Position numbers and translations under genes: made by a program
Notes under the pieces: generated by a model
Database searches by the model: none
What the model saw: only the letters and a program-made list of their open reading frames with translations
Told to the model about the DNA's origin: nothing
From: Basidiobolus ranarum
Taxonomy: Eukaryota
Reading direction: 5' to 3'
Assembly (NCBI GenBank): GCA_040143965.1
Contig: JASJQH010000085.1
Location: 1-32,175 of the forward strand
DNA: 32,175 nucleotides
Shown: positions 17,758 through 20,700 of the stretch, one piece after another
How positions within the stretch are numbered: position 1 is the first letter of the stretch
Layout: each line of letters starts with the position of its first letter

Positions 17758-20700
17758 ATGTCCGATACTGAAACCACACCACAGACAACTGAGTCGATTG
17801 CAAAGATTCCCAAGATCCCCGGCGCTCACGACGAAACCCGTGGAAGATCAACCTTATTTGTTCGTGGTATTCCATACGATTGCAAGAATGAGATACCAAA
17901 AGTCTTCTGAATTTTCATATATATGCACCATTTATTTTATAGCTTTCAATTTATTGGAAGAGGAATATACTACATATCACATTTATCATTCAGGCTTATT
18001 TGAAGAAGCCAACATAGATTTTTATGACCTTTTGTTTTTTTTCTCTACGAGTTAGAATCATTCTTTAGTGACATTGGTCCTATTCGTTCCTGCTTTGTGG
18101 TTCAAAATACACCTGAAGGTGAAGGTGAGGAAGAAAGCGAAGCTGCAGCCAAACCAAGCTCTGATAAGGGAAACAAAGGATACGGTTTTGTGCAATTGTA
18201 GGTTTCAGTCCATTTGAATATAAGACCAAAATTTCGCCAAACTAACAGTGAATCAATAGTGTTGTTTCAGAGGATGCTGAAAGGGCTATAACTGAGCTGA
18301 AGAAAGTGAAGTTCAGAAATGAACGTACGCTCAGAATTGAACTTGCCTTGAAAAAATCTCGTACGTATTATGCAACCAACGAATTCGCACTCCTCTTCGA
18401 AAATGGCTGACTTTGATTTTCCTAAACGTTTAGATCGTGATGATAAGCCAGTGATCGCCAAGAAGCCAAAGAAAGAAGGTTAGTAGCTTCTTTGGAATGT
18501 GAACCACCATGTAAACCAATACTAACTCGTGATTTAAAGTTCCCGTTGTGCCTGAAGATAGAGCTAGATTCCAAAAGATGCCATCGTACGTGTTGTTATT
18601 TCTATGGGTACCTGTATCATGGTTCTAATATATATTCGTAGATCTGTCCAAAGTATTGTTATCTCAGGTCTTGGCAGTGATGTTAATAAGAAGCAAATCT
18701 ACAAGAAAGTGCGTAAATTTGGTGAAGTCAAGGAAGTGATTTTCCCAGTTTTCGATGGTCAAACCGAAGAGGGCGAGAAGAAAGCTTTGGAGGGAGTTGG
18801 TATGTTCGTCAATAGTACTAATCCGTGGTTGACTTTACTGATACTTGAATTTTCAAATAGCACATATTGTATTTGCTAAGCTTGGTGAAGCTAAAAATGC
18901 TATTCAGCATTTGGATGACCATATCTTCAAAGGCAACAAAATCACTGCAAAATCTATGGCACACATTCAAGGAGTAAGTTGATGATAGTGGCCGATATCT
19001 TGCATCCAATTCTGACTTGATTCTTCATTTTCAGGTATTCGATAAGAAAGCTAGATTAATCATTCGTAATTTACCTTTCAAGGTAAGAGAACCATCCATA
19101 CAGTGGAATCATTGAATTATCACTAAATTAGCCTCATTGATTAGCTCCGTGAAGAGGACCTTAAGACCATGTTTTCCAAGTTCGGTACCGTCATCAACAT
19201 CAATCTTCCTCGTAAATTTGGTGACCATGGACCTCTGAGAGGCTTTGGTTTTGTTCAATTTTTATCAATGAGTGAAGCCGAAAAGGTATATTTTTATCTG
19301 GATAGCCTGTATTCTTCTTAATCACATAGACTAATCCGAATGTCTTAAGGCTCTTAATGCTGTCAATGCTACTAAACTTTTGGATCGTACTATTGCCGTT
19401 GATTGGGCTCTTGCTAAGGATCAATACGAAAAAGCAGAAACGCAAGAAGTGAAGCAAGTTGAGGAGGAGGCAGAAGAAGAGCAGGAAGAATCCGAGCATG
19501 AAGACGGGGTTAATGGAGGAGAGGAAGAAGAAGAGGAAGAGGTATTTGATCCTCTTGATAGTGATGACGATGAAGGTGATGATATGGAAGTCGACGAAAA
19601 CGATGACGAAGAGGAAGCCGAGGATGGCAGTGATGAGGAAGACCAGGAAGTCGAAGAAGTCGAAGAAAAAGGTACGGTACAAATTTCAGTAGATATACTG
19701 AATCTATACTAAAGATAATTTCATATCCAACAGAGAGAATCCCTATTCCTCAAGGCGCTACCTTGTTCATCAGAAACATTTCTTTCGATACTCTAGAAGA
19801 GGATCTGTACGAACAGTATGTATATTTACCACTGCAGATCTTGAAGTGTTAGACGATCTCAATATTCTTATTGTATATAGCTTCCGTCAATTCGGTAAAC
19901 TCAGATATTGCCGAATTACCATGGATCACGAAACTGGTCGCTCCAGAGGTACTGGGTTTGCCTGTTTCTGGAACAAAGAAGATGCTGAAAAGTGTGTCGA
20001 AGAGAACCAAAAATTGCATCAAACCGTTAGCATCGTTAATAAGGTAACGAGTTTATTGATGTAAATTTCGTGATTATTATCAATTCACACATTGCTTTTA
20101 CAGAGATCGGTCTTAACCCCTGACGCTCCATCCAACCTCGCAGCTAAATTTACCTTGGATGACAGAATCCTTTCAATTGTCTTGGCTGTTGATAGACAGG
20201 AGGCCGGAAAGCTTGCTGACATAAATACCAGACAACGTCAAAAGGAAGACAAGAGAAATGTTTACTTGATGAAGGAAGGAGGTTTGTTACCGTGGTTCTT
20301 CTATATTAGCACATTTATCTCATTATTGACAAAACCACTTGTGATATATAGTCATTCTCGCTGATTCACCTGCTGCCGAAGGACTTAGCGCAGCTGAGGT
20401 CGCCAAGCGTACCACTTCCTATGCTGCCCGTAAGCAACTTCTCTTGCGTAATCCTTTACTCTTCATCTCGAAAACTCGTTTGTCCATCAGAAACCTTCCT
20501 CTTAAGGTCGATGAGGTTGAGTTAAGAAAGCTAGCTGTTCAAGCTATTCAAAAATTCAAGCTTGAAGTTCAAAGATCCGAGCGTGAACATCTCACAGAGA
20601 GTGAGAGAGCTGAAGGATGGCAGTATCTACCACGTGTTAAACAGGTAGGATGAATAAGTAAATTCAATTGCTTTAGTCCATTACTCAAGCTTTTTATATG

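Follow-up and report, generated by a model that had tools for sequence, protein, structure and literature searches.

An AT-AC intron without U12-type signals in the first RNA recognition motif of Basidiobolus ranarum NOP4, probably removed by the major spliceosome

AT-AC introns outside the minor (U12-dependent) class are very rare, and those described so far retain an almost perfect /ATAAGT donor (a slash marks a splice boundary; papers with PMC numbers are cited from excerpts). Across five species, 24 AT-AC introns are counted among 608,562 U2-type introns, and some fungal xylanase genes are hypothesized to hold U2-dependent AT-AC introns (Sheth et al. 2006, PMC1557818). An engineered AT-AC intron can be spliced in yeast, and a natural AT-AC intron of low abundance with a non-consensus 5′ site is described in yeast RPL30 (PMC5029451). 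Among fungal annotations, AT-AC termini are rare (PMC7072748). The subject here is the first intron (intron 1) of a NOP4/RBM28-type gene of Basidiobolus ranarum, at 17893-18048 on the + strand of a 32,175-base-pair (bp) contig, which was analysed whole and is called the window below. Intron 1 is probably a real and obligatory AT-AC intron of the major (U2-dependent) spliceosome, helped by a strong pyrimidine tract. It is best read as belonging to the known rare U2-type AT-AC kind, but with an atypical donor. A preliminary description of this DNA had offered a U2-type AT-AC intron or a degenerate minor intron; the AT-AC ends, the non-U12 signals, and the U2-like features have held, while the acting spliceosome is deduced from those features.

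The host gene was identified by a search with exon 2, which matches two proteins: the deposited 800-residue B. ranarum protein P0001, named "RNA recognition motif-containing protein", and its 810-residue orthologue P0002 from Basidiobolus meristosporus CBS 931.73. Threaded on the window, P0001 matches exactly as 16 exons at 17758-21201 on the + strand. This exact mapping requires the removal of 17893-18048 as an AT-AC intron of 156 nucleotides (nt) in phase 0, and the deposited model therefore already holds the intron that was proposed from the DNA. The remaining 14 introns of the gene are all GT-AG and 56-73 nt long. Pfam RRM_1 is found in five stretches of the protein (E = 7.5e-67), and a full-length search retrieves 616 relatives at E <= 1e-20, including a named Nop4p (P0036, 4.5e-167) and a named NOP4 (P0065, 9.4e-151). 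Judged by full-length similarity, the gene product is a NOP4/RBM28-type protein with multiple RNA recognition motifs (RRMs), orthologous to the named Nop4 proteins. The features around intron 1 are as follows.

17758..17892, + strand: NOP4/RBM28-like exon 1, from the ATG to ...TLFVRGIPYDCKNE, encoding RNP2 and loop 1 of RRM1 (P0001 mapping, translation)
17893..18048, + strand: intron 1, AT-AC ends, 156 nt, phase 0, GC fraction 0.27
17893..17900, + strand: 5′ splice site ATACCAAA, preceded by exon GAG; not U12-like, weak but usable by U2 criteria
17902..18051, + strand: competing GT-AG intron, aaa/GTCTTC ... ctacGAG/, judged unlikely
17908..17910, + strand: in-frame TGA, 16 nt into intron 1; upon retention the protein would stop at about 50 residues
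18024..18028, + strand: ATGAC, candidate branch site of U2 type; its predicted branch A, at 18027, lies 21 nt before the 3′ end
18028..18046, + strand: CCTTTTGTTTTTTTTCTCT, the polypyrimidine tract; the terminal AC comes next and occupies 18047-18048
18049..18197, + strand: exon 2, ELESFFSDIGPIRSCFVV...GYGFVQ, encoding helix 1 to RNP1 of RRM1 (P0001 mapping, translation)

Exon 1 starts at the ATG at 17758 and ends at base 17892 with the residues ...YDCKNE, and coding restarts at 18049 with ELESFFSDIGPI (protein ELESFF). The 5′ end of the intervening sequence is ATACCAAAAG, and its 3′ end is TTTTCTCTAC. Twelve models result when all GT-AG, GC-AG, and AT-AC pairs compatible with an open frame are enumerated, and the RRM stays intact in just two of them, namely AT-AC at 17893-18048 and GT-AG at 17902-18051; the other in-frame pairs delete or replace conserved RRM residues. 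When the 156-nt intron is slid over k = -12 to +12 (25 placements), a recognized terminal pair, AT-AC, appears at k = 0 only, such that the boundaries are as immovable as the preliminary description had held. Homology sets the junction independently of the terminal bases; by simple arithmetic, the chance of a given dinucleotide pair there is 1/256, or about 5/256 with five near-equivalent placements.

The homology argument had originally relied on the spacing of human RBM28, which is here replaced by 119 retrieved homologues (the best 120 of the 616 relatives, less the query). An ungapped path from RNP2 through helix 1 to GP(V/I)R is present in 115 of these 120 relatives, or 114 of 119 without the query. 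Five are exceptions: three partial proteins have no RRM1, the B. meristosporus protein gains 13 residues, and a Syncephalis pseudoplumigaleata protein has a gap of 5 residues exactly here. The homologue consensus at the junction, T-N/S-x-E/D/Q-L-E, is fitted by KNEELE. Against a profile of 25 orthologues, from which the query was excluded, the product of the AT-AC model scores 127.6 bits and that of the GT-AG model 119.1, a difference of 8.5 bits in favor of the former. The AT-AC intron is both the one used by the deposited protein and the one favored by homology.

Several other ways of joining the two exons were considered and rejected. Pairing AT at 17893 with AG at 18051 deletes one residue and contradicts the 114 ungapped homologues. 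Micro-exon and two-intron models fail for want of a second donor: apart from the GT at 17902, intron 1 contains this dinucleotide only in its T-run near 18034. By the general rules of these processes, the loop motif of unconventional splicing of the HAC1/XBP1 type is not matched by the junction bases, and a bypass by the ribosome from one GAG codon to the other would cost one residue.

The anatomy of intron 1 was compared with that of 28 GT-AG control introns, 14 from NOP4 itself and 14 from the neighboring INTS10 gene.

11095-14008, + strand: INTS10, with 14 GT-AG introns of 53-72 nt (exact mapping of P0121)
12922..12991, + strand: INTS10 intron 11, the comparison intron, a 70-nt GT-AG intron with the donor gag/GTACCAATAG (exact mapping of the deposited P0121)

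The controls measure 53-73 nt (mean 62.7, standard deviation 5.2), and intron 1 is longer by a factor of about 2.5; it had rightly been called long, although a twofold excess, the figure first given, is too small. Its pyrimidine fraction at positions -25 to -4 is 0.82 (control maximum 0.77), its longest pyrimidine run is 12 (control maximum 9), and its longest T run is 8 (control maximum 5). The pyrimidine tract of intron 1 is the strongest among the 29 introns, itself and the controls, and the earlier remarks on a strong tract and on an in-frame TGA (seen at 17908-17910) are both borne out. The motif ATGAC at 18024-18028, which is YTRAY-like, is the sole match to [ACT]T[AG]A[CT] close to the 3′ end. 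Intron 1 combines a candidate U2-type branch site 21 nt from its 3′ end with a pyrimidine tract at 18028-18046.

An RNA gene or structure hidden in this long intron was considered and ruled out by Rfam scans and by folding. Rfam at gathering thresholds gives no match in the whole window, and a search by E-value over 17600-18300 returns only a chance match to a CRISPR repeat on the opposite strand (E = 0.78). The predicted fold of intron 1 is not stable (z = 0.18), with 110 of 200 shuffled sequences folding equally well or better. No box C/D motif was seen by eye on the sense strand of intron 1.

The donor and branch signals do not resemble those of the minor class. An exact-motif scan finds no RTATCCTY match at 17893 and no exact TCCTTRAY match within intron 1. 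The 5′ site ATACCAAA has four mismatches to the eight positions of RTATCCTT, the CCTT core included, where the GT-AG controls have 2-6 (median 4). The best match to TCCTTRAY, TTTATGAC, has three mismatches of eight, which equals the worst of the controls. Intron 1 is no nearer to the U12 consensus than the 28 ordinary introns are, which agrees with the absence of a U12 donor and branch site reported at the outset. When its terminal dinucleotide is masked, the donor scores 1.31 bits on a position weight matrix of the controls, above 3 of the 28 controls scored in leave-one-out fashion.

The closest local parallel is the donor of INTS10 intron 11. As had been noticed from the DNA, ATACCA mirrors the donor GTACCA, which is indeed present in the deposited INTS10 model: gag/ATACCAA of intron 1 and gag/GTACCAA of INTS10 intron 11 are identical at -3 to -1 and at +2 to +7 and differ at +1 and +8. 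INTS10 intron 11 is otherwise unlike intron 1, with GT-AG ends, an ordinary length of 70 nt, and no marked pyrimidine tract. As a separate observation, GTACCA occurs 17 times in the window (10.35 expected), a count reached in 2 of 100 shuffles.

Relatives provide a second view of the same site. P0002 of B. meristosporus reads KNE-IPRISNDLVFFLY-ELESFF and carries its 13-residue insert in RRM1 at about residues 43-55. The insert starts with I-P, encoded by ATH CCN and equivalent to ATACC..., and ends with F-F-L-Y, equivalent to a pyrimidine tract followed by TAY; in B. ranarum, the pyrimidine tract plus TAC translates as PFVFFLY. Read as a translation of the intron ends, the insert therefore places AT... 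and ...TA(C/T) in a second, independently assembled species. Both termini of the same intron seem to have been translated in the P0002 model, and its insert probably results from a GT-AG model forced onto that AT-AC intron. Consecutive N-D residues in the B. meristosporus model are compatible with AATGAC at the candidate branch site. GT-AG readings add 13 residues in B. meristosporus and 2 in B. ranarum, and hence no GT-AG reading is conserved between the species, whereas the AT-AC reading yields the same protein in both. A check on conservation had been proposed for this intron; its ends are both retained in the B. meristosporus protein model, except that the last base is fixed only as C or T.

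A further hint comes from Syncephalis. In S. pseudoplumigaleata P0037, five residues are missing at the exact junction (LPAD-----FESFF), whereas S. plumigaleata P0028 is complete. This gap is what a canonical donor forced beside a non-canonical intron would yield, a hint that the site predates the genus Basidiobolus; in this other zoopagomycote, too, an intron at the same position may have been miscalled, and it may be a non-canonical one. In metagenome contigs, 80 loci encode NOP4 relatives, none of them close to Basidiobolus, and no intron is found at the intron 1 site in any. RRM1 is uninterrupted there in 56 of them (33 by a strict filter and a further 23 by eye), and the other 24 are uninformative, covering other RRMs only or nothing. 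The intron is therefore either lineage-specific or lost elsewhere.

Two observations on the metagenome loci stand apart from this count. In a Glomeromycota-like contig (L021:1-872), the NOP4 match begins only after the site, at ...RSCFLV and past a T/A-rich stretch, and the first half of RRM1 is not found in the 872 upstream bases, as would fit a long intron or an incomplete contig. In many Dikarya-like NOP4 genes (L079:1981-2214, L063:2149-2421, and L016:7390-7617, among others), an interruption falls in helix 1 of the third RRM, right behind ...EDELR.L, a position analogous to that of the Basidiobolus RRM1 intron.

The proposed course of splicing is as follows. The 5′ site gag/AUACCAA would be weakly recognized, the same context with G at +1 serving a normal GT-AG intron 5 kb away. 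The strong pyrimidine tract and the AUGAC branch site 21 nt upstream of the 3′ end would recruit U2AF and U2. The pair formed by A at +1 and C at the last position would stand in for the G/G contact that normally forms between the two terminal bases of an intron and that exon ligation requires. Splicing would then link ...KNE to ELESFF..., completing helix 1 of the first RRM, while an unspliced transcript would run into the TGA 16 nt inside the intron.

A number of points weigh against assigning this intron to the major spliceosome. The junction in the RNA, cutting by the major spliceosome, and the position of the branch point are all predictions from sequence, and the deposited AT-AC model would not be independent of the homology argument if it was built from protein homology. 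The controls comprise 28 introns from two genes only. The donor score falls to -0.12 bits once the GTACCA intron leaves the matrix, and the donor has no G at +5, a base present in 24 of the 28 controls. In the usual pairing pattern with U1, only about four positions of this donor could pair. In B. meristosporus, the last intron base is readable only as C or T. The donor consensus of the known U2-type AT-AC introns, /ATAAGT, is unlike ATACCA (PMC5029451). By the criterion of Sheth et al. 2006, the 5′ site of such an intron should be of good U2 type everywhere but at +1; the low donor score and the missing +5G speak against this, whereas the annotated INTS10 intron with the same context speaks for it. 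Finally, the minor-intron system is active in Basidiobolus: among fungi, minor introns are densest in B. meristosporus, with 249 of them (PMC10639083), so that any AT-AC intron of this genus starts out as a U12 candidate.

Removal of intron 1 by the minor spliceosome despite degenerate signals, as a decaying or lineage-specific minor intron, is accordingly the alternative that the genus itself brings to mind, and it would account for the AT-AC termini and perhaps for a length that is outlying among neighbors. No fungal minor-intron complement denser than that of Basidiobolus is known (PMC10639083). RTATCCTY occurs 10 times in the window (5.4 expected; 1 of 100 shuffles reaches 10), so that U12-like motifs are locally not rare. 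However, the mismatch counts at the 5′ site (4/8) and the branch site (3/8) are no better than those of GT-AG introns, and the strong pyrimidine tract is out of character, as minor introns typically do not have one. Intron 1 also has phase 0, the phase that the classic bias of minor introns disfavors (PMC10639083). The minor introns of B. meristosporus were found with standard matrices, and the genus therefore keeps the standard consensus. Genes for U11, U12, and U6atac are reported in zoopagomycotes, and B. meristosporus may have a divergent U4atac (PMC11347168); a minor spliceosome is therefore probably available in Basidiobolus, which keeps this explanation alive; it is nonetheless considered quite unlikely. 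In the excerpts of the Basidiobolus minor-intron literature (PMC10639083, PMC11347168), supplementary tables aside, NOP4 intron 1 goes unmentioned, and a literature search found nothing relevant tying RBM28 to minor introns.

Equally improbable is that the junction truly used is GT-AG from 17902 to 18051, which would add two residues to RRM1 (KNEIPKLESFF); the AT-AC model would then be an artefact produced by fitting the gene to its homologues. No other canonical pair preserves both the frame and the RRM, the orthologue profile still gives the product of this pair 119.1 bits, small insertions are tolerated in RRM loops, and the deposited AT-AC model may itself derive from protein homology. Yet every one of the 28 controls outscores its donor, aaa/GTCTTCTG, which at -8.7 bits ranks at the 18th percentile of all positions in the window. 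None of the controls has the C at +3 or the GAG acceptor of this pair, and its +5 base is not G. No insertion is present at this point in 114 of 119 homologues, and the B. meristosporus GT-AG reading inserts 13 residues rather than 2 and is not conserved. The low opinion of this pair in the preliminary description, which cited the same donor, acceptor, and 2-residue insertion, was justified. A very unlikely variant is that both junctions, or retention, are in use and that a weak AT-AC intron acts as a regulated, rate-limiting step for NOP4 expression. The weak 5′ site, a stop codon 16 nt in that would make retained transcripts non-productive, a length 2.5 times the local norm, and the apparent conservation of the 3′ part in B. 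meristosporus would all suit such a role. In contrast, the intron has no stable or unusual fold and no match to an RNA family, and likeness between two congeners may be simple recency; the rate-limiting or autoregulatory switch first suggested for this intron is left unsupported by the fold (z = 0.18) and by Rfam.

Splicing by the major spliceosome is still the preferred explanation. There is a small chance that intron 1 is a former U12 AT-AC intron that has switched to the major spliceosome with its ends intact, or that it represents a small Basidiobolus or Zoopagomycota class of long AT-AC introns with a pyrimidine tract and an ATACC donor, outside both consensuses. If the preferred explanation is true, an essential ribosome-biogenesis gene contains an obligatory AT-AC intron with a poor donor, in the fungal genus richest in minor introns, and would offer a natural test case for the division of substrates between spliceosomes and for change of intron type. 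For annotation, gene callers restricted to GT-AG damage NOP4, as in the 13-residue insert of B. meristosporus and the 5-residue gap of Syncephalis, and NOP4 intron 1 would be wrongly assigned by classifiers that put AT-AC introns under "putative minor".

Besides NOP4 and INTS10, the window holds the following genes.

4177-7413, - strand: UBR1/PRT6-like E3 ligase
21417-22787, - strand: calcineurin-like metallophosphatase
24227-25807: CBM_21 domain protein, a 526-residue open reading frame
29231-30886, - strand: PHO4-family phosphate transporter

A 92-nt stretch that starts with GTATCCTC occupies 24135-24226 (+ strand), directly upstream of the CBM_21 reading frame at 24227-25807, and stops exactly where that frame opens. 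It contains CCTTAAT, with a TAG some 20 nt further on. It is a possible U12-type GT-AG intron, with a doubtful upstream exon.

Intron 1 can be placed beside three described kinds of AT-AC intron. With the U2-type ("type II") AT-AC introns, such as those of human SCN4A and SCN5A, it shares the AT-AC ends, the lack of U12 sites, the pyrimidine tract, boundaries kept between related species, and an A/C terminal pair in place of G/G. It differs from the metazoan examples, which have a strong /ATAAGT donor (PMC5029451), in having ATACCA and no G at +5; it also differs from the known hosts in that it resides in an early-diverging fungus, where dependence on the major spliceosome is deduced from its signals. 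With the U12-type AT-AC introns it has in common the AT-AC termini and a genus rich in minor introns (PMC10639083), but neither their RTATCCTT donor nor their TCCTTRAY branch site is present in it, and it has a strong pyrimidine tract and phase 0. The nested intron of Saccharomyces cerevisiae RPL30 is likewise a fungal AT-AC intron whose 5′ site resembles neither /ATATCCTT nor /ATAAGT. It lies within another intron and accounts for a side product of 1-2%, and yeast has no minor spliceosome (PMC5029451). In contrast, removal of the Basidiobolus intron is needed for a functional protein, and a minor spliceosome is probably available in its host genus.

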